Shown here: piece by piece, positions 16,657 through 40,600 of the stretch
How positions within the stretch are numbered: position 1 is the first letter of the stretch
How the letters are laid out: each line of letters begins with the position of its first letter
Virus record (IMG/VR): IMGVR_UViG_3300024529_000001
Span: 1-53,921 of that record
Direction: 5' to 3' (one strand)
DNA: 53,921 bases
DNA from: a virus
Taxonomy: Duplodnaviria > Caudoviricetes
The notes under the pieces: model-generated
What the model saw: the letters and a program-made list of their open reading frames with translations, nothing else
What the model was told of the DNA's origin: nothing
Databases searched by the model: none
Program-made: the position numbers and the translations under genes

Positions 16657-17491
16657 AAAATCTATGATAATAAGGCCATCAGGAAGGAGTAGTGATTATA
16701 TTGCTCCTTCTTTTGGTTATGGTTGTTTATTAAACTGTTCTTATTGTTATATGAAACGTAATGTTCCAGAAGGATTAAGTGTTGCAAAAAATATAGAAGA
16801 TATATTAACTGCAATAAACAATCATTCATTATTTGATACAATAGAAAAACCAAACCAAACTGATCCTAAGTATATAACATATGATATTGCATGTAATGAA
16901 GATTTTGCTCTTCATTCTAAATATTATAATTGGAAAAAGATATTTCAATTTTTCCTTGAACATCCTTATGCAAAAGCAACATTTGCTACTAAAATTATTC
17001 CTATTAAATTTTTAGAATACAATCCTTTAAAAAAAGTTAGAATAAGATTTAGTTTAATGCCACAAAAAATATCTAGTATTGTAGAACCAAATACTCCTGA
17101 TATTATAGACAGGATTAAAGCTGTTAATGCGTTTATTGAAGCAGGATACGAAGTTCATTTAAATTTTAGTCCTGTTATAATTAATGATAACTGGCTTAAA
17201 GATTATAGTTTATTATTTAATATGTGTAATGATTATATAGATTACAAAGATGAAGTAAAATCAGAAGTTATATTTTTAACACATAATAAAAATAAACATC
17301 AATATAACATTGATAATAATATTCCAGGAGAAGATTTACTATGGAATCCATCAACACAAGAAGAAAAGACTTCTAGTTATGGCGGAGTTAATGTAAGATA
17401 TAAAAGATCATTAAAACAAGAATCTATAAACTTGTTTAAAGAATTGCATGATAGTATTATTCCATGGAATACAATAAGATATATTTTTTAA
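16637..17491 (+). CDS. splB: spore photoproduct lyase-like radical SAM protein
   Basis: GYGCLLNCSYCY (CxxxCxxC), DIACNED, TFATK, RIRFSLMP, HLNFSPVI. Confidence 0.82.
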   Translation: MIQKVTRKSMIIRPSGRSSDYIAPSFGYGCLLNCSYCYMKRNVPEGLSVAKNIEDILTAINNHSLFDTIEKPNQTDPKYITYDIACNEDFALHSKYYNWKKIFQFFLEHPYAKATFATKIIPIKFLEYNPLKKVRIRFSLMPQKISSIVEPNTPDIIDRIKAVNAFIEAGYEVHLNFSPVIINDNWLKDYSLLFNMCNDYIDYKDEVKSEVIFLTHNKNKHQYNIDNNIPGEDLLWNPSTQEEKTSSYGGVNVRYKRSLKQESINLFKELHDSIIPWNTIRYIF

Positions 17492-17581: not shown

Positions 17582-17942
17582 AATCAATAATATCTCCTTC
17601 TTTTTTTCTGAAAGCTTCATAATCATGCAAAATTTCTGAATCTTTTTTAATATTAGTTTTAGTAATAACTGTTATAAGATTTTTTTCACAATTTATTGAA
17701 ACTCTTATATTAGGTTTAGAAGAACTATTATAAATTCCAAGATATCCTAATGGAAATAATACTGCCCAAGGTTTTTGATTATGACTATAACAATACTTAA
17801 AAAGTATATCTTGAGGTTTTTTAGTTAATAAGATACCTGGAGAAATTTCTATCTTTGTTCTTTTAGGTATGTCCTTCTTTGCAAATACACCTAATCCATG
17901 TAAATTAGATTCTCTAATTTCAATATAATCACTAATAAACAT
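17580..17942 (-). CDS. SET-domain protein (lysine methyltransferase fold)
   Basis: IRESNLHGLGVFAKKDI, YNSSSKPN (canonical NHSxxPN), IKKDSEILHDY. Confidence 0.85.
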   Translation of the reverse strand: MFISDYIEIRESNLHGLGVFAKKDIPKRTKIEISPGILLTKKPQDILFKYCYSHNQKPWAVLFPLGYLGIYNSSSKPNIRVSINCEKNLITVITKTNIKKDSEILHDYEAFRKKEGDIID

Positions 17943-23900: not shown

Positions 23901-25414
23901 ATCCATTTTCTAAAAACTAAAGCATTACTTTCTTTTATAAAATCATCATACAATATTGAACCATCAATATCATGTATTTCTTCATTTACTGATCTTAATA
24001 TTTTTCCGTATTTTCTTAATGCTAATGATCCAGATAATTCAAAATTTGCTGAAGAAAGATTAAATAAAGTTTTTAATATCCTAGCTGCAAAAGGATCATT
24101 ATTTAATGACTCTTGATAATTTTTAATTTCATATTCAACATTTTTTACGTCCACAACTTTTTGAGTTACAGGATCAATATTATATGCTCTTATAATTTTA
24201 TTAAAATTTTCTTTATAAACATCATCAGCTACATCTAAAGCAATATCTACCAGGTTATCATAATTTAACTTTTTAAATGTTTTATTATTAAAAACTCTAT
24301 GTAAAAAATTCCAAATAGCATTATAAAATGCTTTTAATACATTTTCTTCAAATCTATCTTTTGCACCTGATTTTAATATAAAGTCTTTAGTTATATCTGG
24401 ATTCTCTCTTTTTTCTCCTAAATATTCATTATCTAATCCATGCTCAAGAGCTTGTGCAATAAACGTAATAACTACTTGTTTTCTAATCCAATAATTATCT
24501 TTTTTTATATCAAAAACATCACCATATATATCTTCGTCAATCTCTGATTCAAATCTATTATACTTATCTTTATCTTTAATTTTTTCAAAACTTACTTTAT
24601 ATTTATCATAATACTTTTGATATTCAGACCATTCGCTAATATTTTTCATAAACTGAAAAGATAAAAATGATCTTTTACCAAGCATTGTAAAGATTATATT
24701 AGCAGATTGCATTAATAAATCTTTATCTGTAACATTGTCTCTTAATACTAATATTTTTTGAAGTTGATCATATCCAGACATTGGATTTTGACCACGTATA
24801 TTCATTTCATCTAATACCTTATCAGCATCTTCATTTGTTATTTCAATATTTAAACCTTTTATATACTTACTTAATTTTTTTCTTAATTCTAGATTAAACT
24901 TTTGATGAGCCATTTCACCTAATGTTTTATCTACTTCTTGATTTGATATCTCATTATATGAATTTGGTAATATTTTAAATGCATTATTTTTTTTGAATAT
25001 AACATAATCAGTAATGCCACTTTCATCATTAACTCCTATATAACCTTTAGAATTTATATTTAAATTTTCAGTTTTTAATATTTCTGGATTAACACTTGTT
25101 AAATTTTTAGCAGATATTACATATGGTGATTCATTTTCAATATATGCAGTTGTAAATTCAAATCTATTAGTAGTCCCCTTTTTTTTATAAACTAAAATAG
25201 GTTCATTATTTTCATCTTTTACATTTGAATCAGAAAACCATTTTTTAAAAGCTGGTGTATAAACTTTAGCCCAAATTCTTAAAGCGTCTTCTTTTGATTT
25301 TACTTGCGGTAAAGATTCAATTTGCGCATAAAGTTTTGACTCAGCACCAGTAGGTGAAAGAACACTTGTTATTTGATTTGATTTTTTATCTCTTATAATT
25401 CTACAAGTTGCCAT
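17942..25414 (-). CDS. giant virion cargo/ejection polyvalent protein (2490 aa): degenerate ART-like, nucleotidyltransferase and zincin domains
   Basis: TPAFKKWFSDS..DENNEP; SGSLAL...HDID...VDFF...KIKMGRTKDLND; LLHEFSH; long helical C-terminal region; adjacent to the virion RNAP. Confidence 0.75.
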   Translation of the reverse strand: MATCRIIRDKKSNQITSVLSPTGAESKLYAQIESLPQVKSKEDALRIWAKVYTPAFKKWFSDSNVKDENNEPILVYKKKGTTNRFEFTTAYIENESPYVISAKNLTSVNPEILKTENLNINSKGYIGVNDESGITDYVIFKKNNAFKILPNSYNEISNQEVDKTLGEMAHQKFNLELRKKLSKYIKGLNIEITNEDADKVLDEMNIRGQNPMSGYDQLQKILVLRDNVTDKDLLMQSANIIFTMLGKRSFLSFQFMKNISEWSEYQKYYDKYKVSFEKIKDKDKYNRFESEIDEDIYGDVFDIKKDNYWIRKQVVITFIAQALEHGLDNEYLGEKRENPDITKDFILKSGAKDRFEENVLKAFYNAIWNFLHRVFNNKTFKKLNYDNLVDIALDVADDVYKENFNKIIRAYNIDPVTQKVVDVKNVEYEIKNYQESLNNDPFAARILKTLFNLSSANFELSGSLALRKYGKILRSVNEEIHDIDGSILYDDFIKESNALVFRKWIEDTGIALSHGGRAFEFNVGVKKFIEQQKWYKEITDKFPSKSKGGKFVFEKSFIGKSEKNGETVVIMGYIEHPTKMENVNNVFSPDHGKFMPKRYQVDFFLRTVPYDKNKKAYPQMFGNYFKDWKEIFEAKIKMGRTKDLNDLIFFVPFVKDKYKLKNKGFRFFTLKEDIVTDEEFFEDAALLNPTENVHLVDLDIEGQKNIIANDALTQIALALKNSFNINYNMISKKDAITLTEESQNPYTGQNPSFYYQGELYFINELQSTEQLLHEFSHPFISAIRESNPNLYNKLVFDLKNTAIGKKLLDESLNEYPGFDSNHYAVTDEMLVKALTNAAEFINKKEQSSSEMKSIVQRIILGIKKVLRKLFGKKIKIEKLNPLTNLKELAEMLNQAADPDNNVSFNVNTSIVTEDKVVQYLTDTQNFAKDILNIEGEEVIKIINSQYELIRSHILKVRDDENYEGLKYILAPEQGTGLYDELQQGISKVQTLTNTDESIEELLDSMEFQKKAALALTGNLIKTNKLIKHIYKHINLMKESPNNKENLIQITYYNNLLMNWKTFIDDTKKTMREAGVQSDSDIGNLVGNISDRIDDSTTIINKVFEKGLVDILSEQFDVVNDRMTELWEQRKAKLVAREAPKSQIEKEYNDYKKYLISKDKMKEYLKGEMGDANAFNSFLEGYMYNNDPIISSFGVYLRNNLTEIMNESDRESNKFLNSIKSDLKDAGYNPNNLEKFWKKYLFIDEDVTKNDEGNIEKFEVWTMLNPYKNYRLKMAIMQQNVDEAKQKYSSTRDKKDFKIYADLVEKYRNHKKLFFNNTYLDSFYEPDKMMENEIGREALKERDSILEEISLLQDQMEDEYDEFQNYDVLDQLWKKYRLLFSEYGKDEEGKAKAKLLKEYRNAKNEFYDWVELPNVFNNAYLNFIEKLEQKLSDEEFEQGTSKYDNEYNRLKQEWIDKNTIPQVSQEWYDLRQQQFDIIKDITKDLPVNVKESINIEEAYEKIFDAVTPFRDDDNEPNALEMDEKRISDVKQLQYDIEAIKEEYAGLTGLTTLEYETLQNYFRMLRNKQKLTKSQFNEFKTLSETRSELGLSKLQKKRLFAAFERLSELQKTDATIYYLDEINNIIQKENLSSTLENSTDKKEFDNELANKLLTKDFSGVLASLRRNKGFKKWFDKNHLANDKVDRNGDEYTSYKRVYVWSKVKPQDEFEEKDGVVRSTGPSKFYEKTKLYDAQGNEIDEIFGKPSYKFRQKVVKKEYHTPKEIGKTVDVKGNWLPKSYSEMQKIVAKNPQLEDPYRYINMDYENMDKNSSEFKLLEKVKKYHINNQKGLNRNSKLGYDVPRYRLERLGLFQRKNIVTQGKEKLNGWTAFVKDTKSKFVKTKEDWEVGLNPDDQHVEVNLDLLSDKTAKIPISGRYQMDLDEVSLDLLSAVEKYQLSAKRQLKLIEISPIAEALSTTLNEQGVIDTVNGVKKIIKKTYQNYGLKTSLKKEGKSVRAKGIDNIIERDFYGINITGRTKDQAWLHKSVGWLQKRASFGFFALNIPSALKNRYGAIFQSIIETAAMKYMTPFSYAQGRVWSAKAQMEITSQLYKVGSKTLNAQLVFAFDAIQGYQEERKGDAAGRSLLRDVVSGSWVYSPRKFMEMGATLQAFGGMMYNVNVPKVDKDGNQIKVDEITQSVPYAEAFELVDGQLSLKEGLDPEYDVNGKKFFEIKNRMSAVTRDLQGAYAAEDQPEANRYLMFRMASYMRKYFTTMMMRRFGMKLTKDSNKIFGYSIDGRYNMGLAEVQLGYYIETFKFAGEVLKRGTTAIKYMTPDQANALKRTILEFAMLNLTVLAYGLVGYNDDDEDRWKKMKKLSGPLPGFFVEDDREFKLGGYLQQHLLYLLMNIRAENEQFIPLSKYGLKDLSQMKNVSSVVFGPTTDTYVKIITDMNEEFFGEGKKSRYKKDVGPYVWQKEDSFKIWNNAFKAFGITGSSMDPYLGARNFNSFRQRFR

Positions 25415-25417
25415 TAT

Positions 25418-28400
25418 TTAACAATTTTGATCAAATATTTCTAATATTTGGTTTATACTATTCTCTATATTATCTTCTAACATCTTATTAGTTATATTCT
25501 GACTATTATTTATATTATCAGTTATAACACTATTTTCTATAGATTTTGGATTTATGTATCCAAATTTTTTATAAAGCTGTTCACTAAGATATTGATAAGT
25601 TTTAGGTGCTTTTCTATATAAATTTTCTCCATAACCACTGCTTAAAAATAATAATTTATTTCCATTATTCATTTCTGTAACATAATAATCTATATCAGTA
25701 TCAATATTTTCTTTATTAAATTCAAAATTTTCATCATTTTGAATATCATTTAAAATAATTCCCATATTTCCATCTACATAATTTTTAGACTTAATTTTAT
25801 ATGCTTTGTTATTTAGATAAAAGTTTTCATTTTGTACTGGTAAAACAATTAACTCATTAGTATTTTCAGTTTTTTCAACTAAACTGTCTATATAAGCACC
25901 ATTTTTTCTATAAGTATTAATAAGCTGTATAGATGAATTATTTATATAAATATTATTTATATCAGTAAGTGTTTCTTTTAAATTACTTGTTTTTTCTGTC
26001 CAATTTTTAAATCTCCAAGCTTTTTGATTTTGATCTTCATATTTATTAATAAGACTTTTAGTAAATGAATCTAAATATTCTGCACTTTTCATTCTTCCAT
26101 CATAAGTTTTATCATTAAACATATCAATGACATCCTTATGAGCAGACTTTAATACTTCTAATATTTTTTCATTAGGTACACCTCTTACTAAAGATAGCGG
26201 ACTATTTATATCTTGTCCTGTTTGAAAAAACGCAAAAAATGGAAAATCTTTAAAAAACTCTGTTATCATTTTATTATCTTCTTCATTTTCTACCTTTTTT
26301 ATATTTGGATCCATTAATTCTGAAACATTTAAATAATAATTTTCAAAAGTTTCACCGTCATCTATTTTTTCGTTATACTTTAAATTAGTCACATAATTTC
26401 CTTTATCAATTACTAAATTGCTTAATATTTCGTATTGATTAATTAAATCTGGATGTTTATCTAAAATTTCTGATAACCTAACCGCATAAGTATTAGTTGA
26501 TTTAAATAGTTTTTGTTTATTATATATGTTATCTAATGTTTTTTGATTTAAATAAAAATCATAAACTTTTTTTAGACTTTCTTTTTTCTTTTCTGTTTCT
26601 TCTTCAGCAACATATTCATCATATAAATCAGTAAAATATTTATCATCATATAAATCTTCTGCTGTTGTTGAAGATTTTAATAATTCTTTTTGTAAAGCAA
26701 ATTCAAAATAATCATCAAAAGAAGTTATATATCTACCAATTTTAGGATCTTTTTTAGCATCTAAAAAATCGCTATTAAGTTTATTTGAATTTACATATAT
26801 AACATCATCTTTAATTGCTACACCTTGTTTTAGATTTTGTACATATTCAATTTTTAAATCTTTTTCAACTTTAAGGCCGCTTAATACTAATTTTCCATCA
26901 ACAATTTTAGGTAAAAAAGATTCTCTTATTTTATTTTGAAACATAAATGATACAAGATCATTTTTAAAAATATTAACAAATCTTTCTTTACCATCTACAT
27001 CATTAGTCATTCCCATCTTTTTCAATGGAACGCTTCCTGAAGCTATTTCATTAGATAAATGATTATTTATATCTGGATGATTTCTTAATTCAAATAAATT
27101 AGATAAATACTTTAATGAAAATTCTGATATATCAAATAATCCTATTATAGATGTATTAATCATTTTACTAATTAAATTTGGATCAAAATAGTTTAAATTT
27201 AATAATCCTAATTTTGCTTTTTCTCTTTCAAATGCTGCATATAATGAAGTTGATTTTTTAGTATCATAAGTTAAATTAGTTTTAATCTGTGTCATTTCAT
27301 TAGATGGAGCTCTAAGTTTTAAATAATGATAAAACGCTGCTTGCGCAACTTCTCTATTATTATCATCAATACCATTCATTGCAATATCTTTTAAAATTTC
27401 AATATTATCTATTTCTTTTTCATACTTTTCAATTTCTGTATTTGCAATCTTAAAAGAATTAAAATTAAAATTTTTCTTAGATGTATTAAATTCTTTAGGA
27501 AATTTATTTAAAGGATTTAATATAACAGCTTCTTCAGCTTTTATATTTATTAACCTAAGACCAAATGGAGATTTACTCGCCTCTTCAGATTGCTTTGTCA
27601 AGTATGCTTTTGATAATTCATAAAATACAGATTTTTTTATTCTAACTTGTTTTATATAATTTACTACATAAGGATTAGAAATAAAATAAATTGCTTTTTC
27701 TTCTGGAACACCGCTTTCAGTTAACAAAGTAAGTAAAGGAGCATTTTCAATTCCTGCATTAATATCAAATAACCAGGCTTTCTTTTCAACATCTACTGCA
27801 CCATTTATTAATTGAGAATTTGTATCAGATATTTTAGTTGTACCATTAACATCATAAATATTAGAAAGAGATATATACTCTTTTTTATTTTTTAAAAATT
27901 TATTATGTGATAGCTTTAATTTAACTTTTTGTGTAATTCTTGGTTTATTACCTGTATGATAAACAGTAAATTTTGCATCTATAAGTTGTAAATATTCAAT
28001 AAATCTTTCATCAACACCAGGCATATCACCAACAATAAAAGTTACTCCTCTTTTAGCTTGTTCTACTATTTTTTGTTTTGTATACTCACTTAAATCAGTG
28101 TACTTATATGAAGCATTACGTGCTAACATAACAACTGAAGTTTCATCATTTAAAATATTTTTTGAATCTTCATTTTCATCAACTTCTTCTAAATTTATTT
28201 TTCCTTTTATTTTATTTAAAGATGTATTACTACTACTATCTTCTTTTCTTATTTCACCAATAAAACCATTAGCATCTTTACGCATTGCAGCATCTTTAGC
28301 ATCTCCTTCAGCTGTACCTTTTCCTTTATTACTAGATCCAGGAATAGCTTTTGTATTAAAATCAATATCATTTATATATGCTCCCATTCTATTATATACA

Positions 28401-31400
28401 GAATTAAATGTATTGTTTACAGCATATAAACCTAATACAGCTTTTCCAATTGCATTAGATGCATGTTTATACAAATTATAAATTGGTTCAAATATTCTTG
28501 CAACTTCTAATACATCACTTTCACCTTCATCAGTATTTAATTGCTGATATTGAGAATATTTCTTTTTACCAGCAGGACTTTGAGCCATTTTATCAGCTAA
28601 TGCTTCTAATGATGCATTACCTAATGGTAAAACTAAATCAATAAAATTTTCTGGTTGCTCAAGTATTTCTCTTATAACTTTAATAGTGTCATTATCTATA
28701 CCTTTTGAACCAACAGAATTTAACTTTCTTTTATTTTCAGCTAATTTTTCATATAAAGGTTTTAGAATATTTTTTTCTTCTTTATTAAAAATTTCATATT
28801 CTTCTGTTAAATAAAATTGTTCTAATGCTTCTAATCTATTTTCTACCTCATTAATAGCATTTCTAGTTTCATATAGTTTATTAGTAACATATGTTCCTTT
28901 TACTTTTAATGATTGAGTATATAATTCATTCCAGGTAGTAAGTAATTGTTTTTTAAGTTTTCTATCAACTTTTGATTCTTGTCTAAAAGTTTCTTCTTTT
29001 TCTTGAAACTCAATTTGAAGCTCAGGACTTAATTTTTTCTTTCTTTCTTTCCACTTACTTTTTCTCCAATTATTTCTTTTTTCTTTTATTTGATCTTTTA
29101 TAAAATCTATTTTATTTTCTAAGTCTTCTTTATTTTCAGTTACATCTAAATTTTTAATTAATTCTGTTTTACCATTAATAACTGTTAAGTTAGGCATATA
29201 TATAGAAAGCTTATCAACATCAAAATCTGAACCTGATTTAGCAACCATTTCAGAAGGAGGTATAATTATATTACCAGCTGATTCAGGCAAAAATTCTCCA
29301 ACTTCCATAAATTCCATAGAGTTAAGACCTTGAACTGGTATACGTACACCAACCATAGTAATCATTCTTCTATTGTCATCTTTATTTAACCAATCTTCAT
29401 TTTTTATTACCTTATTCAATCTTTCTCTAGTACGAATTTTATCACCTTTTAAATCTGTTAAATTAAGTAATTTTGTAAAATCACCTTGTAATGCAATTTT
29501 AATTTTCATTGCAGAGGTCAGACCATTATTAGCATTTTCTTGATATGAAGCTAAACCATCAGTACCATATGTTTGTTTATCTAATTCTGTTGCGTTTGTA
29601 AACTGTGAACTTTCAAAACCAGAATTAGAAACTAATACAAGCATTTCTCCATTTAGTTTTGACTTAATTAATTTATTATTAACTAATGCCATTAACATTT
29701 TTTCTATTTGTGGAGCATTTAGAGATAAAGATAAATCAGTAACTATTTCACCATTATAATCAACATTAATAAAATCAAGCTCATGTGCAGCAAGATCTCT
29801 AGCTTTTAATTGCCTAGCTACCATTTCAACTAAACCTGAAACATCTTCAGATCCTAAAGTATATCCTGATTCTCTTAATATTTCTTTTTTAGTACTTTCA
29901 ATTTTTTGTTCTAATAAATTTTCATATGTAGTAGCAAAAGCTTTCATTTTTTTAGAAATAGCTCTTCCTTTTTCAAATATATTTAACTCTACTAATTTTC
30001 TAAATTGAGTTGAAAATGTAGCCTTTCTTTTAAATTCTGGATGAATATCAATTTGATCTTTTAAGTATTCTAAATAAATTGGATTAGAAATAAATTTACT
30101 TTCTTCATTAAATTCTCTACTTTCTGTAGGTTTTATATCTCCTTTATATAATAATGAATTTTCACCATTTTCAGTTATTGTAGAAATCTTACTTCCTGAA
30201 CCATATGTACCATAAGTAATATTTTCTCTTGTCATTTTATTATGTAACTTTTCCAAGTTAGTTCCTTCAATTACATTTGGTATTAAAGGCATTAATGAAT
30301 ATTTATGAAAACCTGTTAAAGGTACACTATTAGTAGTAGCTAAAGGTCCAAAATATTGATATTTTCTAACTGGAAAAAATTCTGATAAATTGTATTTAGA
30401 TACATCTTCTTTATTAATAATTTTTTGGAATAACTCTTCTTGTTTTTTTGACCATTTACCTTGTAATTTACCAAGTATTCTATAAGCATCAAATGTAAGA
30501 TATCCTTGACCATCACCTTCTTCCATTTTTAGATATGGTTTTATTGCACTTTGAACTGCATTATTTATCATATCATCTTTTACAGTTTTAGATAATTTAA
30601 GATTTTTATATCTTTCTATATAATATTTTCTAAATGCTTTTTCATAATTTTCAGCATATGCAGATTCTATTTCATTTTCTTTTAAAACTATAGTATTAAG
30701 TTTACCATTAAAATATAAAAGAACATTAGACATTAAACCAAGTGATTGTGCGTATGTTGTATTACGTGTTGGATTTGAAGTATTAGGAGCAGTAAATACA
30801 TTATTAATCCAATTATACATTGCTTGATCAGTTCTAAAGATTTGACCTGCAGAAGCCATCGCTGCATTTCTTTTATGAAAATCTTCTTTTAGCATATTAT
30901 ATTGAGAAGGATCTCCATAAAATATTGTCATTAAATCAAATTTATTTAACATTTGATTTGCAACATATGAGCTTACTATTATTTCTGCCATTTGTTCTTT
31001 TGAAAGCTTTTCATCAGTATATTCTCCTAATTCTTTAGATATTTTATTTTCTAAAGACTCTGATATAAAAGGCATTTCATTAAATTTCTGATATGTCTGT
31101 TCATAAACATTATTTAAATAATCATTTAAATCAAGAGTTAACCAATCTCTTAATGACCAATTTAAATCATAGTCATCATCAAGAAATTCTTCAACTGTAT
31201 CATATTCTTTATCTAATACATCCATATCCAATTGATCTTGAATATTATCATAAAGCTCTTCACTTATCATTCCTTTAAAAGTATACAACTCTGTACCTTT
31301 AGCTTTTATTTTATTTGTACCAACTGTATATCCTAAAACTTCAGGTTGACCACCTTTTTTTATTATTTCTATTTTTTTAATATCAGCTATTATATGATCT

Positions 31401-34400
31401 ATAATTTTGTTAATAGTTTTTACTGTTCCATCAGTTGTAACAACTTCACTAAAATTCTCACCATCATAAAACTTTATTGTTTTCTCATAATCTTTAGAAA
31501 ACTCTACACTGTCAATATATACATGTTTATTTTTTCCAGAATTTTTAACTCTTGATGGCGAAGCAGCTAGTGATGTAGATTTTGAAGCATGTCTTGGAAA
31601 TTCAGGATTACCTCTTATTATAGTATCATGTATATCTTGAATTAATTTATCATTATCTGTTAAATCAGCTGTTACATTTGACTTATCTAAAATTTCATCT
31701 TTTACTTTAGCAACTCCAGATAAATTTGTTAATTTAAGTACTATTTCTTTTTTAGTTGTTTTATCAATCAGTTTTGGACCTTCTCCATTTCCAATATCAA
31801 ATATTGAATTTAATATACCATTTGATAATACAGAAGGATTATTTCTAAAATCTAAGAAAGACATATAAGGTTTAGAAACTAATTCAGAATAAGTTTTAGA
31901 TTTATTAATTGCATTTACAATTCTATTTACAGTCCCATTATAAGTATGTTCATTTTGTAAATCATTGTTTGCGTTATTTACAGAAAAATTAGAATATTTA
32001 TCAGAAAATTTAGATTCAGCATTTAATATTTCAGTTACTCTAGCAGTTTCACTTGATAAGTCTTTAATTATATCAAATATTAAACCTTTTCTTTTTTTAT
32101 CTATTAATGCAGTATATATGTATTTTATTGATTCTTTATATTTTTCTTTATTATTAATCTCATTAATTAATAAGTTATTATTATCTAAATTAAAACCAAT
32201 ATTTTTTAAAAATGTAAAAGGATTTTTTTGAGCAGCATAATAATCAGGATAAGTTCTTCTAAACTTAGTATTTTCTCCAGTTTTTAAAACAGGTACTTTT
32301 CCTCTTCCTTTTATTTTTATTTCTGTTATATACTTATTTGGATCTCTTTTTATTGATTTAAAAAATGAAGAAAAATTAGCTCTTATTTTTTGTAAATTAC
32401 CATGTGCAGCACCAGAAGTTAATTCATATTCAAGAATAGATTCATAATCTTTCTTCCCAGATTCACTTTTTATTTCTTTTTTAGTATTTAATTTAACAGT
32501 TATCTGCTCTAATGGTACTCTTGATTTATTAAACACTTGCCAAAAATCTGTCCATATGTCTACTTCAGAATCTGCTTTAGCTAAATTAGGATCACCTAAT
32601 TTTTTTAATAATTCATTTATTGTACCTGCTACATTTGCATCTGCTTTAGAAGCTTTTTTAAGAGCATCATACATTTCTTCTGGATGTTCTATTGACTCTA
32701 AAGTTTTTAATAATCTACTCCAAGTTTTATTAAATTCAGAAAGTTCATGAATATCAATTTGATTAAGTTTTGGTGAACCATCTTCATTATATTTATGTAA
32801 ACTTTTTATTAAAAATAAAATTTGTTTTGACGCACTTTGAATTGTTGAAAGCTTATTACTTGACCCTTCAATTACTTGTTGCCATTGTTGATTTTCTGTG
32901 TTAACACTTATTAAGTCTTTTACTGCTTCTGCATCTAAAGAATCAGTTAAACTTCCTGTATATTTAGAGTTATTTCTATGATATGCTGCTACACCTTTTG
33001 TAGATCCTAAATCACTTATATCACCCCATTGAGATATTGCATAATCTAATAATTCTTTTTTATATTCTGTATCTGCAGTTTCTCTAAGTTCTGTAAACTT
33101 ATATAAAGCAAATTGATATGCATGTTTATAGAAAAATTCAGGAGCGGTATGCCATGCAGATGACCATTTAGTATTTTTATCTTGATCAATCCTCATATTA
33201 ATAAATGTAGAAATAAATGAATCTATAGATTTCATTAATACTCTTGACTTTTGAATGTCTAAATTTTCTACATTTTCATTTAAAGACTCTATTCCGTAAT
33301 TTAGTTTTCCCCATTTAACATTGTTAATAGAATAATTTCTCTGTTCAAAATCCCCATTATAAAGCTCTTTTTGTAATTTTCTTACTGAATTTAATATTTC
33401 TGGCCTTACAATTGCACTTTCATAAGAAGTATTAGTAAATAAAGATTTTAGAAAGTTAAATATTCTACTAAATATATTATTTCTTTTAGGAGAATCTTTC
33501 TTAGTAATTTTTCCTCCTGAAAGGCCATACGCTCTATAATCTTCTGCTAAATACTCTTCTATTTCTTTATCATTAGCTTCAGAAAACTTTTTAGTTACTC
33601 CTTTATATGTTACAAAAGTCCCAGTATCTTTTTTTACTTCATTATATAATTCAGATTTTTCTTCTAGAGTTAAAAATAATTGGGTGAAACCATGCCATGA
33701 TTCATGGTAAAGATCTGTGTAATTAAAACCATCATGTAATGTTATACCATCTACTGTAAACTGTGCATATATATTAGAGTTTACAATATTAGATATTATT
33801 TCATATGGTAAATACTTAGACATAGGATTTGAATCATACCATTGTTTAGCTCTTTTTTGTTGTCTTTTTGTTTCGGCTCTTTGAGTTTCTCCTGCAGGTT
33901 TTGTTCTATATAATTCTTCAGAAAGATCATCAGTAGAATTAAATCCTGTATTATTCTTTTTAGGTTCTTTTTTTATTTTTACCTCACTAGTTTGTGCTGG
34001 TTGAGTAGATTCTAATTCCTGTTGAGCTAATTTTAAACCTTCAAGAAAAGCTTGGTCAATTAACTGATTAGTATTATGCGTGAAATTTTCATATTGCATT
34101 AACTTTTTAGCAGGTTCTGAATTAGGATTTTGTTTAAATGATTCAACTACAAGTTGCTTCATTAAACCTAAACTATCTGCTGCTTTCATTTGTGCAACAG
34201 TAGCTTTGCCTCTTATTTTTCTTCCGTATCCAGGTGTAGTTTTAAGATTATTATATTTATTATAAGTTGTTTGATCAAAAGTACCAGACTTATTAGATTG
34301 ATAAGCATGTTCTACACTACCATATTCTCTACCTTCCCAAGTAAATTTTCTTGGGGCTAAATTAGATAATACTTTGGTAGATTTTTCAGATTCAGCTTGT

Positions 34401-37400
34401 CCCCAATAAACATTTATAGTTCCTTTTCTTTCAACCTCACTAGTTTGTGGTGTTGGTTGAGCTTTTAATGCAGTAGTAAGAATATTTTTAATATTTGTTT
34501 TTTCTTGAGCGGTAAGTTTACTACCTCTATTACCTGCGACATTAAGAGTTTTAATATTATTATCAGCTAAGAATTTTCTTAATTGTTCCGCTGTAGGGTT
34601 TAGAATAAAAGGCTTACTATGTTTTTTAGCATATCTTTCTGTAGCAATTTTTCCTGCACTATCTGCACTAGTAGCAAAATAAGCTGTTCCATCTGAATTT
34701 AAAGTATTCATTTCTGTTCTAGCAGTATAAGCATCAGTTTTACCTTCTGCATATTTATCCTGTTCTTCTGCTGTGATTTCTTTGACACCATATTTTTCTG
34801 CTAAAGAAGGGTCTTTTTTACCAGCTTCTGTTAAAAATCCTACAGGAGCTGTTCCACCAGTTTTCATTCCTAATGCTTTTCCAACTTCTAAACCAATCTG
34901 ATCTACACCTGTTTGCCCTCCAGAAATAACTTTAGTAACTTGTTGTGTTGGTTTTAAATTAGGTATTTTTTCTAATTTTTTTAATTTATATGGTTTTTCA
35001 ATTCCAGAAAATTCAGATGGATAAGTTGTATATTCACCTCTTACAGATGCAGCTTTAATAGGAATTATTAATAATTCAGATGCACTAAGACCATCTGTGT
35101 TATTTAAGAGAATGTTATATGTTGATAATTGTTTTGAAAACTTAGAAGCATCACTTTCACTACCTTCAAAACCACTGTCAAAGAACTTACTACCAGCTCT
35201 TTTGGTTTTCATATCCCAAATCTTTATTTCTCCAGTCTTCTTATTTATAGTTAAAAGATCTAATGTTCCTGCTATACCTAACTCATCATTATAAACAAGC
35301 ATTCCTTCTGAATAAACTTTTTCATCTTCTGAAATATTTTCTTCAGTCCAATAATCAATTGCATCAATAACATCTTTATACGCTGATCTTTTAATTGCGT
35401 TCTTTTTAAACTCACTATTAGCAATAAAGTTTTTATATAATTTGGGACCATCTTCAGAAAAATAATCTCTAAAAATTTCATCAAAAGTAGTTCCAATAAC
35501 TGCTCCTGTTTTAATTCTTAATATTGCATCTTCTTCAGTGTTATTATTTTTATCTATAGGATTATCTAATAAATCTAAAAGATAACTAGACTCAAGCCTG
35601 TTTCTATCAATATTTATAGTTCCATCATCATTAAACACAAATGCATCTTTTTTTTCTACTTCTCTTAAATTATCAAGAGTGTCAGATGATTCAGATATTA
35701 CATCCGTTACTCTATTATAAGTACGTATTACATTTCTATTTTCATCAAGTTGAATATATGTTTTTTTATCAGGCGATAATATAAAATTTTCTGATCTAGC
35801 TACAATCTGATCTAATACAACTATACTATTAGCTACAGAAGAATTTTTAAGACTTGTATTACCTTTTATTATTCTTTTATTTCTTTTAAGATTATTTAAA
35901 TCAGATACAGAAAAAGTGTAATAACCTCCAAGTAATGGTACTTGACCTTCAGCATTAACTACAAAAGGAGATGAAAAGTTTTCTTTTACAAAATCATTAT
36001 AATCTTTTTCTTGTGTTTCAACTTTATTATTTTCTATAGAAATTATATCATTTATTTTAGTTCCTAATGATCGTGAATCAAGATTTAATTGTAAAACAAA
36101 GCTTTTTTCTATTTTCTTTTTATTTTTATCTGTTATAGAATATTTATAACCTTCTATTTTTTTCTCTATATCTTTTTTTAATTGCTTCTTAGTATATACA
36201 TCCCCTTTTTTATTTTTTACAATTAATTCTTTTGGATTTTTTTTGTCATAACTATATTTATAATCACTTATATACGTATATTGTTTAATTAATTTAATTC
36301 TTTCTAAAGCCTTTATATCCAAGTCATCATTTAAAAGAAGTTCTTTTATAAAATCTGCGTACTTAGTATCCTTTAGAAGTAAATAATCTATTGGTATATT
36401 AGGTGTAAAAGGATCAGAAACTTTTATAACAGCCTTTCCTTTATTCTCTCCTACTTTTTCTATTTCAATATCAAAAGGTAAAGTTTCATTAAAATTTATT
36501 TCACTTAATGGAACCTTTTCTTCATAGTTAACAACTGCATGACCTGGATTTACAGTTGTAATTTCAGTAATAACTTTATTATTCTTTTTATCACTTTGAA
36601 TATATTTTATTGCATCATCTACAGCTTTCCAATCTGCATCAAATCTTTTTTTAACTTCTTTAACTGATTCTCCAGTTTTTTTAGCTACATCTTGAAAAGA
36701 TGCTAAACCTCTATAAAAATTTTCTTTATTTCCAAAAGTTCTTCTAACATTATCATATGAAGCAATTCCTTCTTCAGCAGATACCACATTATAATTACCA
36801 GAGTCATCTTCCTTAAAATATAATATATTACCATTATTATCTGTAATAACAGCAGATATACCATTTTGATAATCTACTTTTCTCTGAGCTAATGTTTGTT
36901 TCTTTTGAACTACATCTTTTTTTAATTTTTCATCCCATCTATAATCAATATGTTCTTTATCAGTAATTCTTCTTAAATGATCTGGTCTTAAATCTTCTTT
37001 TCTCAACATTGTTTGAGACATAAGAGTTATTTTAAAACCTGTATGTCCTCCAAAAGTAAGATCAGACATTGATAAATTATCTGATTTATCTAATGCTAAT
37101 GCAAATGCTTTTTTTAAATTTTTATAAAATGTATTTTCTTTATCTAAGATTCCTTGTTGAGATGATAGTGCAGCATACAAGTGAGGTCTAGTTATTGTTG
37201 ACGCAACATCTTGCGGTTTAGCATCAAAAATAACATTTGTTACTCTACTTTTTTCATCTATTGAATTTCCTGCATTATTTCTTTTTAACTTCTTTTTTTG
37301 TTTACGAGATAATGTAGAAGGATCAATTTTAAAATATTTAAAAAACTTGTTAAAATCACTAAATTCTTCTACTAATTTTCCTAAATTATCTAAACTAAAA

Positions 37401-37657
37401 CCTTTACCTATTTGTTGCAACAATAATTCTTGATTTCCCGATATAACTTGCAACATTATACTTGGTGTTAATTGCATAAGAGATAATGCTGTTAAAGGTA
37501 CTACACCGTCTTCTATTGAAGCATTATAATAAGTATCAATAATATTTTCAACATTAATTAACTCATCTTTTTGAAAAGATTGTTTAGCAAAAGCTGAAGC
37601 AACACCTAAAACTGCTATTTGCTGTTCTTCATTTAATATTACACATTTAACAGACAT
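25418..37657 (-). CDS. virion-packaged single-chain (two-barrel) RNA polymerase with accessory domains (4079 aa)
   Basis: RIPVQGLNSM...GSDFDVDKL (DFDVD at 29213-29227), KRNAA, DGQGY, HKYSLMPL; also PD-(D/E)xK, SLOG, NADAR and HESWH motifs. Confidence 0.9.
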   Translation of the reverse strand: MSVKCVILNEEQQIAVLGVASAFAKQSFQKDELINVENIIDTYYNASIEDGVVPLTALSLMQLTPSIMLQVISGNQELLLQQIGKGFSLDNLGKLVEEFSDFNKFFKYFKIDPSTLSRKQKKKLKRNNAGNSIDEKSRVTNVIFDAKPQDVASTITRPHLYAALSSQQGILDKENTFYKNLKKAFALALDKSDNLSMSDLTFGGHTGFKITLMSQTMLRKEDLRPDHLRRITDKEHIDYRWDEKLKKDVVQKKQTLAQRKVDYQNGISAVITDNNGNILYFKEDDSGNYNVVSAEEGIASYDNVRRTFGNKENFYRGLASFQDVAKKTGESVKEVKKRFDADWKAVDDAIKYIQSDKKNNKVITEITTVNPGHAVVNYEEKVPLSEINFNETLPFDIEIEKVGENKGKAVIKVSDPFTPNIPIDYLLLKDTKYADFIKELLLNDDLDIKALERIKLIKQYTYISDYKYSYDKKNPKELIVKNKKGDVYTKKQLKKDIEKKIEGYKYSITDKNKKKIEKSFVLQLNLDSRSLGTKINDIISIENNKVETQEKDYNDFVKENFSSPFVVNAEGQVPLLGGYYTFSVSDLNNLKRNKRIIKGNTSLKNSSVANSIVVLDQIVARSENFILSPDKKTYIQLDENRNVIRTYNRVTDVISESSDTLDNLREVEKKDAFVFNDDGTINIDRNRLESSYLLDLLDNPIDKNNNTEEDAILRIKTGAVIGTTFDEIFRDYFSEDGPKLYKNFIANSEFKKNAIKRSAYKDVIDAIDYWTEENISEDEKVYSEGMLVYNDELGIAGTLDLLTINKKTGEIKIWDMKTKRAGSKFFDSGFEGSESDASKFSKQLSTYNILLNNTDGLSASELLIIPIKAASVRGEYTTYPSEFSGIEKPYKLKKLEKIPNLKPTQQVTKVISGGQTGVDQIGLEVGKALGMKTGGTAPVGFLTEAGKKDPSLAEKYGVKEITAEEQDKYAEGKTDAYTARTEMNTLNSDGTAYFATSADSAGKIATERYAKKHSKPFILNPTAEQLRKFLADNNIKTLNVAGNRGSKLTAQEKTNIKNILTTALKAQPTPQTSEVERKGTINVYWGQAESEKSTKVLSNLAPRKFTWEGREYGSVEHAYQSNKSGTFDQTTYNKYNNLKTTPGYGRKIRGKATVAQMKAADSLGLMKQLVVESFKQNPNSEPAKKLMQYENFTHNTNQLIDQAFLEGLKLAQQELESTQPAQTSEVKIKKEPKKNNTGFNSTDDLSEELYRTKPAGETQRAETKRQQKRAKQWYDSNPMSKYLPYEIISNIVNSNIYAQFTVDGITLHDGFNYTDLYHESWHGFTQLFLTLEEKSELYNEVKKDTGTFVTYKGVTKKFSEANDKEIEEYLAEDYRAYGLSGGKITKKDSPKRNNIFSRIFNFLKSLFTNTSYESAIVRPEILNSVRKLQKELYNGDFEQRNYSINNVKWGKLNYGIESLNENVENLDIQKSRVLMKSIDSFISTFINMRIDQDKNTKWSSAWHTAPEFFYKHAYQFALYKFTELRETADTEYKKELLDYAISQWGDISDLGSTKGVAAYHRNNSKYTGSLTDSLDAEAVKDLISVNTENQQWQQVIEGSSNKLSTIQSASKQILFLIKSLHKYNEDGSPKLNQIDIHELSEFNKTWSRLLKTLESIEHPEEMYDALKKASKADANVAGTINELLKKLGDPNLAKADSEVDIWTDFWQVFNKSRVPLEQITVKLNTKKEIKSESGKKDYESILEYELTSGAAHGNLQKIRANFSSFFKSIKRDPNKYITEIKIKGRGKVPVLKTGENTKFRRTYPDYYAAQKNPFTFLKNIGFNLDNNNLLINEINNKEKYKESIKYIYTALIDKKRKGLIFDIIKDLSSETARVTEILNAESKFSDKYSNFSVNNANNDLQNEHTYNGTVNRIVNAINKSKTYSELVSKPYMSFLDFRNNPSVLSNGILNSIFDIGNGEGPKLIDKTTKKEIVLKLTNLSGVAKVKDEILDKSNVTADLTDNDKLIQDIHDTIIRGNPEFPRHASKSTSLAASPSRVKNSGKNKHVYIDSVEFSKDYEKTIKFYDGENFSEVVTTDGTVKTINKIIDHIIADIKKIEIIKKGGQPEVLGYTVGTNKIKAKGTELYTFKGMISEELYDNIQDQLDMDVLDKEYDTVEEFLDDDYDLNWSLRDWLTLDLNDYLNNVYEQTYQKFNEMPFISESLENKISKELGEYTDEKLSKEQMAEIIVSSYVANQMLNKFDLMTIFYGDPSQYNMLKEDFHKRNAAMASAGQIFRTDQAMYNWINNVFTAPNTSNPTRNTTYAQSLGLMSNVLLYFNGKLNTIVLKENEIESAYAENYEKAFRKYYIERYKNLKLSKTVKDDMINNAVQSAIKPYLKMEEGDGQGYLTFDAYRILGKLQGKWSKKQEELFQKIINKEDVSKYNLSEFFPVRKYQYFGPLATTNSVPLTGFHKYSLMPLIPNVIEGTNLEKLHNKMTRENITYGTYGSGSKISTITENGENSLLYKGDIKPTESREFNEESKFISNPIYLEYLKDQIDIHPEFKRKATFSTQFRKLVELNIFEKGRAISKKMKAFATTYENLLEQKIESTKKEILRESGYTLGSEDVSGLVEMVARQLKARDLAAHELDFINVDYNGEIVTDLSLSLNAPQIEKMLMALVNNKLIKSKLNGEMLVLVSNSGFESSQFTNATELDKQTYGTDGLASYQENANNGLTSAMKIKIALQGDFTKLLNLTDLKGDKIRTRERLNKVIKNEDWLNKDDNRRMITMVGVRIPVQGLNSMEFMEVGEFLPESAGNIIIPPSEMVAKSGSDFDVDKLSIYMPNLTVINGKTELIKNLDVTENKEDLENKIDFIKDQIKEKRNNWRKSKWKERKKKLSPELQIEFQEKEETFRQESKVDRKLKKQLLTTWNELYTQSLKVKGTYVTNKLYETRNAINEVENRLEALEQFYLTEEYEIFNKEEKNILKPLYEKLAENKRKLNSVGSKGIDNDTIKVIREILEQPENFIDLVLPLGNASLEALADKMAQSPAGKKKYSQYQQLNTDEGESDVLEVARIFEPIYNLYKHASNAIGKAVLGLYAVNNTFNSVYNRMGAYINDIDFNTKAIPGSSNKGKGTAEGDAKDAAMRKDANGFIGEIRKEDSSSNTSLNKIKGKINLEEVDENEDSKNILNDETSVVMLARNASYKYTDLSEYTKQKIVEQAKRGVTFIVGDMPGVDERFIEYLQLIDAKFTVYHTGNKPRITQKVKLKLSHNKFLKNKKEYISLSNIYDVNGTTKISDTNSQLINGAVDVEKKAWLFDINAGIENAPLLTLLTESGVPEEKAIYFISNPYVVNYIKQVRIKKSVFYELSKAYLTKQSEEASKSPFGLRLINIKAEEAVILNPLNKFPKEFNTSKKNFNFNSFKIANTEIEKYEKEIDNIEILKDIAMNGIDDNNREVAQAAFYHYLKLRAPSNEMTQIKTNLTYDTKKSTSLYAAFEREKAKLGLLNLNYFDPNLISKMINTSIIGLFDISEFSLKYLSNLFELRNHPDINNHLSNEIASGSVPLKKMGMTNDVDGKERFVNIFKNDLVSFMFQNKIRESFLPKIVDGKLVLSGLKVEKDLKIEYVQNLKQGVAIKDDVIYVNSNKLNSDFLDAKKDPKIGRYITSFDDYFEFALQKELLKSSTTAEDLYDDKYFTDLYDEYVAEEETEKKKESLKKVYDFYLNQKTLDNIYNKQKLFKSTNTYAVRLSEILDKHPDLINQYEILSNLVIDKGNYVTNLKYNEKIDDGETFENYYLNVSELMDPNIKKVENEEDNKMITEFFKDFPFFAFFQTGQDINSPLSLVRGVPNEKILEVLKSAHKDVIDMFNDKTYDGRMKSAEYLDSFTKSLINKYEDQNQKAWRFKNWTEKTSNLKETLTDINNIYINNSSIQLINTYRKNGAYIDSLVEKTENTNELIVLPVQNENFYLNNKAYKIKSKNYVDGNMGIILNDIQNDENFEFNKENIDTDIDYYVTEMNNGNKLLFLSSGYGENLYRKAPKTYQYLSEQLYKKFGYINPKSIENSVITDNINNSQNITNKMLEDNIENSINQILEIFDQNC
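33981..34005. repeat. direct repeat copy 1 (encodes the TQPAQTSEV linker)
   Basis: ACCTCACTAGTTTGTG-c-TGGTTGAG; the 16-nt core is identical to 34434-34449. Confidence 0.8.
34434..34461. repeat. direct repeat copy 2 (encodes the AQPTPQTSEV linker)
   Basis: ACCTCACTAGTTTGTG-gtgt-TGGTTGAG; with copy 1 it brackets the NADAR-like domain in frame. Confidence 0.8.
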
Positions 37658-37674
37658 ATTCTAAAATATTTAAC

Positions 37675-40600
37675 TTAACAATTATTTTTAGTTTTATTAC
37701 TTGAATTTTTCATTGCAGCAAGCGGATCTATTGCATCATCAAATCCTTTTTTGATTTGGTCATTAGAAATTTCTATATTATTTTGATTTTCATTTGCTGC
37801 ACCAGCTTCCCCATCAGTTGGATTTACATCATCATCTTCAATAGGAGCAGTATCATTAATAAGTTTAAAACTTTTATCTTTCATAATTTCTTCTGTAAAT
37901 TCATATTCTTCTAAATCAGCAATGTTAACAGATTTATATAATATTTCATCATTTGTTTTATTCATAATATAATATTTTTTTCTTTTATATTTAAATACCT
38001 GACCTACTTCAATATCTTCAATAGGCACATTAGATAATACTTCATTTAAATACTCATTTAAGATTTCATCAATATCATTTATTTCATCATTATATAATTT
38101 TATTTCATCTTTACCTTTTCCAATTTTATCATTATTTGATGTAAATTCATTTGTCCATCTTTCAAATTCTTGATCTGCATTTGATCCAGCTTTTTTAAGT
38201 CTATCTTTTATTTCATTTATATAATTTGAAATTATACTTTGTCTTTCATGTTCATCTATATCTGGAGTTGTTTTCATTCTTTCAAATGAATATACATTCA
38301 TTTTACCTTGACCTTCAAAATAATTTTTTAAAGTTTGAGGCATATAAACAGTCAATAAATCTGTACCTTCTTGATATTCATATTTTTCAGTATTAACTTT
38401 ATCTGCTTTTGTAGGATAATTTTTTAATATACCTCTTAATGTATTTAATTTATTTTCTCTACCTAAAACTTCATCAAAACTAATGTAACCAAAATATTTT
38501 AATTTAAGACTATTTTTAGCATCTATAAAGGTTTGTCCTTTATCTTTCACTTCGTCTAAATTTTTTATTTTATTGTTCACACCTTTAAAAAAGTATCCTG
38601 ACCTTGCATCTGGATCTAATTCATTTATTATTTCATCATTTAATGTAATAGTTAAATCTGTAGGTTGAGATTCAGATGATAATTGTGCTAGTTTATTTTC
38701 TAATCCTTCTATTTTTGCATTTTGAGCTTGAATTATAGGACTACTACTTTCATAGTCATCTAACAACTCTTCTAATTGTTTGTAAGCATTTTTTATGGCT
38801 TCTTCTAATTTTTCTATTTCAGTAAGCTTTTTCTTTTTAGTTTTTATTTTTGGGTCACCTTTTTTATTTTTAAAAGTATTTATAATTCCTGTTATAATTT
38901 TTTTATTCTTTTTGTCTTTGTACCAATTTTGAAATTCACCACCTTCTAAATTGTCTATATCAATATTATTTGTTTCTGCAAACTTTAAAAATCTGTTTTG
39001 TAACTTTTCAAATAATTCTTTTGGAAGATCTTCAATTGCAGTATCTACAGATAATTCTTTTTCATCCTCTTTTCCTTTCCCTTTTTCCTCCCCTTCTTCT
39101 TCTTCTACTACTACATCCGTTGTCACATTTATACTAGGTAATTTAGATTCTTTTAAGAATTCATCAACTACCTTTTGTATTTCCGCTAAATCTTTTTCAT
39201 CAGTTACTTCCTGTCCTGCATTTTCTTTATCATCAAACTTATAATAAAAAGGTATTTTTTGATTCATACCACTATTGCCTTTAGTTATTACTGGTAACCA
39301 AATTGGCTGTATCCAATAACCCGCATCCCATAATTTATTTGCAAAAATATTTCCGTTTAAAAGATTTCTATATTTATCATATGCATATCTTAAATCTTCT
39401 TCTTTGTTACTAAAATTTCTTTGAAATTCTTTAAAGGCATTTTGTCTAAACTTTTCAAATCCTCCTGGATTCAAAAGTATATTAACTGCATTTTCTAGAT
39501 TTAAAGCATCTGACTCAAGCTCATGATGATCAAGTATAAGTTCAAATGATTCTCTTATTTTATCACTTGTTATATATTCTCCATTTGATCTTGCCAAAAC
39601 TTTTAAGTAATCTTCATATAAATCAAAAAGATCATTAACTACCCTTTCAGTATTTTTTGCATTTTGAACGCTTAAATAAGAAATATTATTTTTTGATACT
39701 GTAACAGTTTTACCATCTGACCTTTTAACTTTTACTTTACCATCATCTAGTTCTTCTATAATAGTTCCTTTAATTTTTTGTTTTTTACCATTTAAAGTTC
39801 CTTCATATTGAATCTCAGTTTCATCAGCTGGTTTATCTTTTTTCTTTTTCTTAAATTCTTCTTTTATTTCTGATAGTTTAGTATTGAATGTCTCTAATTT
39901 TTCTCTTTTATCCTTAAGATTTTTAAGTTGTTTTTTCTGAGACTTGGTCATTGATTCATTTTGCTCTCTTGAAAATATATCAGAATTTAATATATCCAAC
40001 TCTTGATTCATACTAATTTCATTTAATAGTATAGTAAAATCAGTTGATGATACTTTTGACAAAGGTTTATTTGAACTAATAGTATTTGCTATATTAGTCA
40101 TCCTTTCTAATGTCTTATCAAAACTATATTGCATAAATACAAGTTTATCTTTTGCGTCTTCAAATGATATATAATTTTCTTCTGCTTGCTCTCTTTCTAT
40201 AGTATCTGGTTTAAATGCATTTGGATTAAATGGATTTACTTCTTGATCTGCTATTGTTTTTCTTTTCTTTATATTTTCAGCATTATCTAAAACACTTTGT
40301 AACTTAGCTCTTAAATCAGTATTTTCTAATTCTTCAAGAGTCATAGAAGAACTAAAAGCTTCTTGTAAAGATTGATCATCTAATTCTTGAAATTGTTTTA
40401 TTCTGTCTACAAAACCATCATATAAACCTAATTTTAATACACTAGATACATGAGTATATTGTTGAGTATTAACAAGGTCCCTATATGCTTTAACATCTCC
40501 ACTTTTTATTGCATCAATTTTAGCTTGTTCAATTCTTGTTTGATTTACTACATTATCTTGTAAGGCGTTTGCATATTTAAGAGGACTACTAAAAACTTCA

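Follow-up and report, generated by a model that had tools for sequence, protein, structure and literature searches.

Terminal cysteines at the facing ends of three giant phage proteins and their probable head-to-tail pairing in crAss-like virions

The viral record IMGVR_UViG_3300024529_000001 was analyzed over its full length of 53,921 nt (53.9 kb; ~24% G+C; completeness estimate, 45%), and this stretch is hereafter called the window. Replication genes occupy the plus strand at 1–17.5 kb and encode a DnaB-like helicase, an AAA_24 protein, a PD-(D/E)XK nuclease, a family-B DNA polymerase (phrog_1252), and a spore-photoproduct-lyase (SPL)-like radical-SAM protein. The minus strand carries seven consecutive large genes for proteins of 705, 804, 1213, 1030, 1570, 4079, and 2490 amino acids (aa). 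Here, we focused on the last three of these, the 1570-aa protein (X), the 4079-aa virion RNA polymerase (RNAP) protein (p4079), and the 2490-aa protein (Y; p2490), which are probably internal cargo of a crAss-like virion that is packed and injected. Crassviruses are the most abundant human gut phages, and the question is how they pack, order, and deliver their large cargo, to which the RNA polymerase initiating infection belongs.

Cysteines at the facing ends of three probable cargo proteins

Open reading frames (ORFs) and their translations, obtained with genetic code table 11, gave the following positions for the three genes, numbered as links, and for their Cys codons.

37675..42387, minus strand: link 1 (X), 1570 aa, 177 kDa, with the last residue as its sole Cys
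37678..37680, minus strand: codon of Cys1570, which ends link 1 (..AAT TGT TAA)
25418..37657, minus strand: link 2, the virion RNA polymerase protein, 4079 aa, 467 kDa, whose only Cys are residue 5 and the last residue
37643..37645, minus strand: codon of Cys5 of link 2 (MSVKC...)
25421..25423, minus strand: codon of Cys4079, which ends link 2 (..AAT TGT TAA)
17942..25414, minus strand: link 3 (Y), 2490 aa, 290 kDa, with residue 4 as its sole Cys
25403..25405, minus strand: codon of Cys4 of link 3 (MATC...)

Together, the three proteins contain four Cys in 8139 aa, all within five residues of termini that face each other in gene order, and no additional internal Cys was found. The four positions given in an initial annotation of the window were exact. 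Its further statements, that the two outer ends lack Cys and that the replication proteins use Cys freely, also held: the outer ends contain none, and the 15 replication ORFs on the plus strand contain 49 Cys in 4659 aa (1.05%). The Cys-free outer ends are the acidic N-terminus of link 1 (MDEEQDIPELDN) and the basic C-terminus of link 3 (...FRQRFR). Links 1 and 2 both end with Asn-Cys-stop and have the terminal sequence AATTGTTAA in common, and the genes for p4079 and p2490 lie in the same frame, separated by TAA plus one codon.

At the Cys frequency of the replication ORFs, 85.6 Cys would be expected in 8139 aa (Poisson P for four or fewer, 1.6e-31), and the probability that four randomly placed Cys fall one in each facing five-residue end was 3.4e-12. 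These two values and the conservation described below ruled out chance as the origin of the pattern. Low-GC codon bias was likewise dismissed as the cause of the Cys loss, given the 1.05% Cys in the replication ORFs of this window.

Conservation of the terminal cysteines and covariation with gene fission and fusion

A search of a 5.8-billion-protein collection with the three proteins returned 109 RNAP, 108 Y, and 36 X homologues at 22–100% identity, in which a Cys was tallied as N-terminal within the first 11 residues and as C-terminal within the last 10. Cys was present at both ends in 93/109 RNAPs, 82 of the 109 had no other Cys, and the family contained 24 inner Cys in 407,796 aa. An N-terminal Cys was found in 101/108 Y proteins, as the only Cys in 86 of them, with a C-terminal Cys in 0/108; X proteins showed the reverse arrangement (C-terminal, 33/36; N-terminal, 0/36). 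Most exceptions were either gene calls that fall short of the closest relatives in length (X P0220, P0222, and P0248; Y P0177, P0178, P0198, and P0206; RNAPs P0008, P0010, P0028, P0050, P0058, and P0095) or forms extended at the front (P0128 and P0212 among the Y proteins, together with seven RNAPs that carry X-like segments). Cys4 of p2490 was invariant in a 31-sequence alignment.

Scanning viral contigs with a 26-RNAP alignment identified 79 loci with flanks (28–97% identity, some of them near-duplicates), and here too the terminal Cys of the window proteins proved to be conserved in relatives. Among X proteins, 62/62 carried a C-terminal Cys and 0/54 an N-terminal one. For the RNAP, the counts were 68/69 at the N-terminus and 76/76 at the C-terminus; the protein that follows the RNAP carried Cys at its N-terminus in 76/76 cases, and the last link carried it at its C-terminus in 0/73. 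Inner Cys across these loci numbered 29 in 560,689 aa. The single RNAP without an N-terminal Cys (locus L050) was accounted for by a frameshift at an A10 homopolymer that hides the start MVNCSLSQ. The A10 tract at ~12390–12405 of L050 shifts the frame ~40 codons into the RNAP gene, the start chosen by the ORF finder lies 128 nt late, and the shift may be either an assembly error or slippage.

The same rule was found in the culturable phages phi14:2 and crAss001. In phi14:2, Cys occurs at the last residue of g067 (1797 aa), at residues 3 and -2 of g066 (2180 aa), and at residue 3 of g065 (1421 aa); in crAss001, it occurs at -3 of gp47 (2341 aa), at 5, 1334, and -9 of gp50 (2412 aa), and at 5 of gp49 (1349 aa). 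The three crAss001 proteins weigh 262.5, 276.9, and 154.5 kDa (crAss001 paper), ~694 kDa together. Both g065 and gp49 match p2490, and both g066 and the Protein Data Bank (PDB) chain 6vr4_A match p4079. The series g067-g066-g065 and gp47-gp50-gp49 are thus homologous to the window proteins and share their Cys rule, but their first junction lies ~1300–1500 residues further into the homologous sequence, and the window proteins are much longer and bear extra modules. Homologues have been detected in virions by mass spectrometry (MS) in phi14:2 (record notes) and crAss001 (crAss001 structure paper). In cr4_1 (L091) and cr6_1 (L092), 7–57 in-frame table-11 stops occur inside annotated cargo coding sequences (CDS), which indicates recoding of a stop codon in these phages; both nevertheless obey the terminal-Cys rule.

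We then compared the placement of Cys among loci in which the cargo series is divided differently. In Steigviridae and Intestiviridae, the first junction maps to ~1300–1500 of p4079, just past its HESWH motif, where p4079 itself is continuous and Cys-free; the window's own first junction lies ~1300 residues earlier. These junctions at non-homologous places are all Cys-flanked. In the Intestiviridae phages Carjivirus C0526BW15 and cr110_1, polymerase and Y part form one protein that lacks a C-terminal Cys, while the junction ahead of this fusion retains its pair, with Cys at -2 in the upstream protein. The annotated fusion start of C0526BW15 (L087, 17385–17450) lies upstream of the likely true ATG, which gives MSCGN with Cys at residue 3, and in cr110_1 (L093, 12806) the fusion protein as annotated has its first Cys at residue 17, and its true start is likely further downstream. 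In Fpv1, cr118_1, cr108_1, cr10_1, cr4_1, and cr6_1, the RNAP is the first link and has no N-terminal Cys, the protein preceding it has no C-terminal Cys, and the C-terminal Cys of the RNAP (-2 to -11) faces Cys 3–5 of the next protein.

In four loci, a further link lies in the middle of the series and carries Cys at each end, as listed below; that of L044 matches C-terminal parts of other RNAPs.

L017: middle link of 574 aa, Cys at 3 and -3
L019: middle link of 757 aa, Cys at 6 and -3
L044: middle link of 1325 aa, Cys at 4 and -1
L063: middle link of 586 aa, Cys at 7 and -3

The middle links of L017 and L063 correspond to a part of p2490 (40.6% identity over 569 aa; pairwise E, 2.7e-132), which divides into the following segments.

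23381..25063, minus strand: N-module of link 3 (residues 118–678), a free-standing 574/586-aa protein in L017/L063
23279..23380, minus strand: Cys-free linker of link 3 (residues 679–712), which replaces the Cys-flanked junction of L017 and L063
17966..23278, minus strand: core of link 3 (residues 713–2483), matching residues 118–1923 of the 1934-aa last link of L017

Because residues 118–678 and 713–2483 match separate links of L017, p2490 is, as judged by these alignments, a fusion of two links without the junction Cys. In a tree of RNAP cores, L017 and L063 fell into two separate well-supported clades, so that at least two changes are needed, and the fused form occurred in at least five scattered places. 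The number of terminal Cys equaled twice the number of junctions in every fission or fusion case. These data therefore fit heterotypic head-to-tail pairing; they do not fit homodimers, bonding to some third partner, or a metal site of the Cys4 kind. This covariation with fission and fusion is the strongest argument for a pairing of neighbors, which sequence comparison strongly supports.

Next, we considered whether the rule belongs to the genes or to the proteins. The crAss001 gp47 gene lies on the opposite strand and does not adjoin gp50, yet its C-terminal Cys is kept. Spacing at the junctions ranged from -11 to +36 nt, reaching ~800 nt (up to 814) between the RNAP and the next link in L050, L053, and L054, and the frames of neighboring genes agreed in only 13/62 and 22/76 loci. 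This variation in strand, spacing, and frame argues against read-through and against a DNA motif at the junction, and the frame counts (22/76 and 13/62) ruled out stop-codon read-through joining p4079 and p2490 as a conserved mechanism. The Cys rule thus appears to act on proteins and not on gene junctions.

The C-terminal Cys lay at -1 to -10 and the N-terminal Cys at residues 2–7, or up to 11 where the start call was doubtful. Around the N-terminal Cys, RNAPs had the motif C-[SAT]-[LI], and many Y proteins had C-P-N. No His or acidic ligand was conserved beside the junction Cys, and His made up 0.5–0.9% of these proteins. The outer ends were distinguished by charge: net charge over 12 residues averaged -3.1 at the X N-terminus (-2 or lower in 92%, vs 25% of internal windows), and the average at the Y C-terminus was +2.2 (+2 or higher in 78%, vs 18% of internal windows). 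The acidic head and basic tail of the window clade would fit a directional thread. A complex prediction for p4079 3780–4079 with p2490 1–650, run with a separate alignment for each protein and no controls, scored 0.30 against a mark of 0.32.

Interpretation of the junction cysteines and comparison with known systems

A disulfide of this arrangement has been solved in cyanopodophage A4, where the cryo-electron microscopy (cryo-EM) map shows gp27 Cys1715 bonded to gp26 Cys5, beside a C-terminal helix docked in the partner, with the gp27-gp26 pair sitting in a five-fold pre-ejectosome ring (PNAS 2025, PMC12002296). In the A-4L record (Anabaena phage A-4L, KF356198), the sole Cys of gp27 (1717 aa) is at -3 and that of gp26 (1114 aa) is at 5. 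As in the crAss links, these are consecutive large ejection proteins with a C-terminal Cys upstream, an N-terminal Cys downstream, and no others; unlike the crAss series, A4 has a single pair rather than 3–4 links, and no RNA polymerase is included. The accessible part of the A4 report does not describe a general terminal-Cys rule (PMC12002296).

Other phages also eject internal proteins. N4-like phages (Schitoviridae) resemble the window in carrying a giant RNA polymerase (3400–3500 aa) in the capsid and ejecting it, and Cys is suppressed in their ejection operon, which has been explained by passage through the periplasm (DEV paper, PMC11445570). The polymerase of N4 and DEV is one polypeptide with essentially no Cys, and there is consequently no junction to bridge, whereas p4079 does not share this complete absence and keeps two conserved terminal Cys with no inner ones. 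Gp14, gp15, and gp16 of T7 and gp7, gp16, and gp20 of P22 are internal proteins that are stored near the portal and exit before the DNA, partly unfolded (cited in the crAss001 paper). The proposed crAss cargo would likewise consist of internal proteins leaving the capsid ahead of the DNA. The ejection proteins of T7 and P22 are held together non-covalently.

By analogy with the solved A4 gp27-gp26 bond, we infer that head-to-tail disulfides connect the junction Cys within the particle, with a probability of roughly 0.65. The C-to-N pairing of neighbors proposed in the initial annotation gained support from the presence of Cys at every junction, their absence from the outer ends, and the covariation with fission and fusion; the bond itself is argued from the A4 case. 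Two thiols per junction without conserved ligands point to a disulfide and not to a metal. Inter-protein disulfides have been reported in crAss001 virions, in the tail and at the portal vertex; the accessible part of the crAss001 paper does not mention the cargo termini.

Under the disulfide reading, the terminal peptides would dock before oxidation, and the C-terminal Cys of each protein would pair with the Cys at residues 4–5 of the next. The pairs would be oxidized to inter-protein disulfides once the particle is outside the reducing cytoplasm, giving a linear thread of ~934 kDa (177 + 467 + 290) in the order 1570, RNAP, 2490. The overhangs at the joints would be four residues or fewer here and up to ~10 in relatives, and a partly unfolded thread could fit the tail channel; constrictions of <50 Å were described in the crAss001 tail (crAss001 paper). 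The links would be co-packaged and delivered in a fixed order at a 1:1:1 ratio, and thioredoxin-type reduction in the cytoplasm would release or loosen the thread. The purge of internal Cys would prevent wrong disulfides, following the logic proposed for the Cys-free ejected proteins of N4-type phages. That the disulfide chain serves ordered threading is a tentative proposal to which we give somewhat less than an even chance; in the crAss001 paper, the exit order is said only to be likely set by packing and mutual interactions.

Several observations weigh against the disulfide reading. The N-terminal Cys was missing in 15/109 RNAP homologues; five of these begin inside the alignment of their nearest relatives and seven bear X-like front sequence, which leaves P0099, P0100, and P0101 as plain exceptions. 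P0096, a fused form, has no Cys at all, and the viral-contig scan with P0096 found no relative. The 79 loci are related to each other, so that their counts are not independent events. The purge of Cys is not absolute, since gut members retain 3 to 8 inner Cys in proteins of 4091–4946 aa and the last link of cr6_1 has 6. The A4 precedent holds by analogy only, because homology of the crAss proteins to A4 gp26/gp27 was not found (blastp E, 0.03–0.6; profile scores, ~8 bits or lower). The oxidation step must be assumed, because capsids fill in the reducing cytoplasm and many crassviruses live in the anoxic gut. Moreover, the three RNAP-associated proteins lacked clear density in the crAss001 reconstruction (crAss001 paper), and the acidic head and basic tail are not present in phi14:2 and crAss001.

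That last absence also counts against a rival explanation, in which the links serve capsid loading rather than ordered ejection: one member would carry the packaging signal, the others would dock to it, and the disulfide would be a later lock. Only the first link has a distinctive free N-terminus (mean -3.1 over 12 residues), and the A4 disulfide stabilizes a static pre-ejectosome ring and not a thread (PMC12002296), both of which would suit loading. A lock could sit anywhere on the docking surface, however, so that Cys within ~10 residues of the ends at every junction would go unexplained, and we regard this explanation as improbable. Homotypic disulfides (X-X, Y-Y, or RNAP polymers), or bonds to the portal or capsid in place of chain neighbors, would suit the several copies of each cargo protein estimated for crAss001 and the 47-47 disulfide of its gp57 homodimer (crAss001 paper). 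Such bonds would explain neither the Cys-free outer ends (first link, 0/54 and 0/36; last link, 0/73 and 0/108) nor the joint loss of both Cys on fusion and their gain at each end of a split-off module, which makes them very unlikely.

The initial annotation had also offered a metal bridge, for which no support emerged. The window has exactly four Cys, as one four-thiol site binding Zn, Fe, or Cu would need; chains with one junction (2 Cys) or three junctions (6 Cys) are nevertheless common, and a Cys4 site is therefore not conserved. The two thiols at a junction do not suffice for stable Zn, neither His nor another ligand is conserved nearby, and the solved A4 case is a disulfide (PMC12002296), so that bridging metal at the terminal Cys seems extremely unlikely. 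Hardly any likelihood is left for the Cys having no linking role and serving the ends in some other way (as a signal for processing or sorting, as a redox sensor, or in acylation) or arising as a by-product of a nucleotide signal. The family-specific motifs C-[SAT]-[LI] and C-P-N could be recognition sites, and AATTGTTAA is shared by both C-terminal ends of the window. Against this stand the variable position of the C-terminal Cys (-1 to -10), gene spacing that varies from -11 to +36 and up to 814 nt, and the C-terminal Cys that crAss001 gp47 keeps without abutting gp50; in addition, a signal for one protein would not vanish from both partners on fusion.

Returning to the head-to-tail disulfides, two elements were known already: a terminal disulfide between consecutive ejection proteins (A4) and the purge of Cys from ejected proteins (N4-like). 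New here are the putative chain of several links, with the virion RNA polymerase among them, its order-wide conservation, and its exchange with peptide bonds during evolution. The literature searches made here returned no paper describing the terminal-Cys rule in Crassvirales cargo. More speculatively, Crassvirales and relatives such as Fipvunavirus might build a redox-gated "post-translational polyprotein," in which separate modules are stitched by disulfides into a polar thread of ~1 MDa. RNAP and effector modules might then be separate or freely fused, exit in a fixed order, perhaps pulling the DNA end, and be cut apart by host thioredoxin, and gain or loss of a Cys pair might act as an evolutionary switch between peptide bond and disulfide bond. 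That all of these proposals hold jointly we consider doubtful. If the pairing is true, the single A4 disulfide would be extended to a general device in which disulfide and peptide bond are interchangeable in evolution. The terminal-Cys rule provides a concrete and cheap test, as phi14:2 and crAss001 can both be cultured. It also aids annotation: a Cys at residues 2–7 marks the true gene start, which we used to correct two annotated starts and one frameshift, and a Cys pair shows which giant ORFs form one cargo series.

Domains of the links and neighboring genes

The identification of the 4079-aa protein as an RNAP, made in the initial annotation, was borne out by similarity searches. With residues 2200–2860 as the query, phmmer against the PDB matched 6vr4_A, described as "DNA-dependent RNA polymerase" (E, 2.9e-21), and tblastn with residues 2001–3000 matched phi14:2 g066, the "catalytic RNA polymerase subunit" (E, 3e-19), together with a further 79 phage records, most of them from Crassvirales and Flavobacterium phages. 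In a local blastp alignment, residues 842–1376 of g066 aligned with 2210–2826 of p4079. A 1400-aa p4079 query missed 6vr4_A at E 0.001, whereas the 661-aa core found it. The following motifs were located in p4079.

29213..29227, minus strand: catalytic DFDVD motif (residues 2811–2815), a metal-binding DxDxD
33692..33706, minus strand: zincin-like HESWH motif (residues 1318–1322)

D2811, D2813, and D2815 of the DFDVD motif were invariant in 26 aligned homologues. On this evidence, p4079 is assigned as a Crassvirales-type virion RNA polymerase protein of the phi14:2 gp66 kind with added domains. N4-type phages have an RNAP of the T7-like single-subunit class, which differs from the gp66 type. 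In cr108_1 (L086, 22080–22369), the RNAP is annotated as two CDS that split within the catalytic motif (...AGSD / ~290 nt / YDIDK...); every frame of this insert contains stops, and the insert resembles a self-splicing intron.

H1318, E1319, and H1322 of the HExxH motif of p4079 were invariant in the alignment. In p2490, a further HExxH at residues 773–777 (23084–23098, minus strand) had nearly invariant H773, E774, and H777, and the cargo proteins thus contain two zincin-like, metalloprotease-like sites, one in each of p2490 and p4079. Residues 910–1052 of p4079 (34502–34930, minus strand) matched a circularly permuted YpsA/SLOG domain (PF12694; E, 9.6e-23), which was the only Pfam match above cut-off in the three link proteins; those to PD-(D/E)XK (p4079 759–867) and Myosin_N fell below it, and a PHROGs search of the three proteins gave no match. 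Short stretches of the SLOG region were 72–87% identical to the otherwise distant homologues P0101, P0103, and P0107, and this identity suggests that the region may be a mobile cassette.

The N-module of p2490 contained an invariant G-S ... H-D-I-D pattern in nine aligned sequences (residues 462–484; 23963–24031, minus strand). Its AlphaFold model had a mean pLDDT of 64.6, and a Foldseek search of this model against the PDB gave nothing at E 0.001. The top non-significant rows were nucleotidyltransferases of the Pol-beta type: terminal deoxynucleotidyltransferase (TdT; E, 0.35), Pol mu (0.61), and a cGAS-like receptor (3.1). The N-module is possibly an ejected nucleotidyltransferase, a candidate assignment for which these rows of a predicted model are a hint only.

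In the remainder of the window, the replication module ends with the SPL-like radical-SAM protein (16637–17491, plus strand; PF20903; E, 3.2e-24), which has Cys at 30, 34, and 37. A megablast search of the region against a phage collection gave no match. The 1030-aa protein encoded directly upstream of the chain has only two Cys, at residues 128 and 134 (CX5C; 45084–45104, minus strand). This pair is non-terminal and conserved, occurring at 128/134 in L007, L008, L048, and L062 and at 128/133 in L030 and L044.

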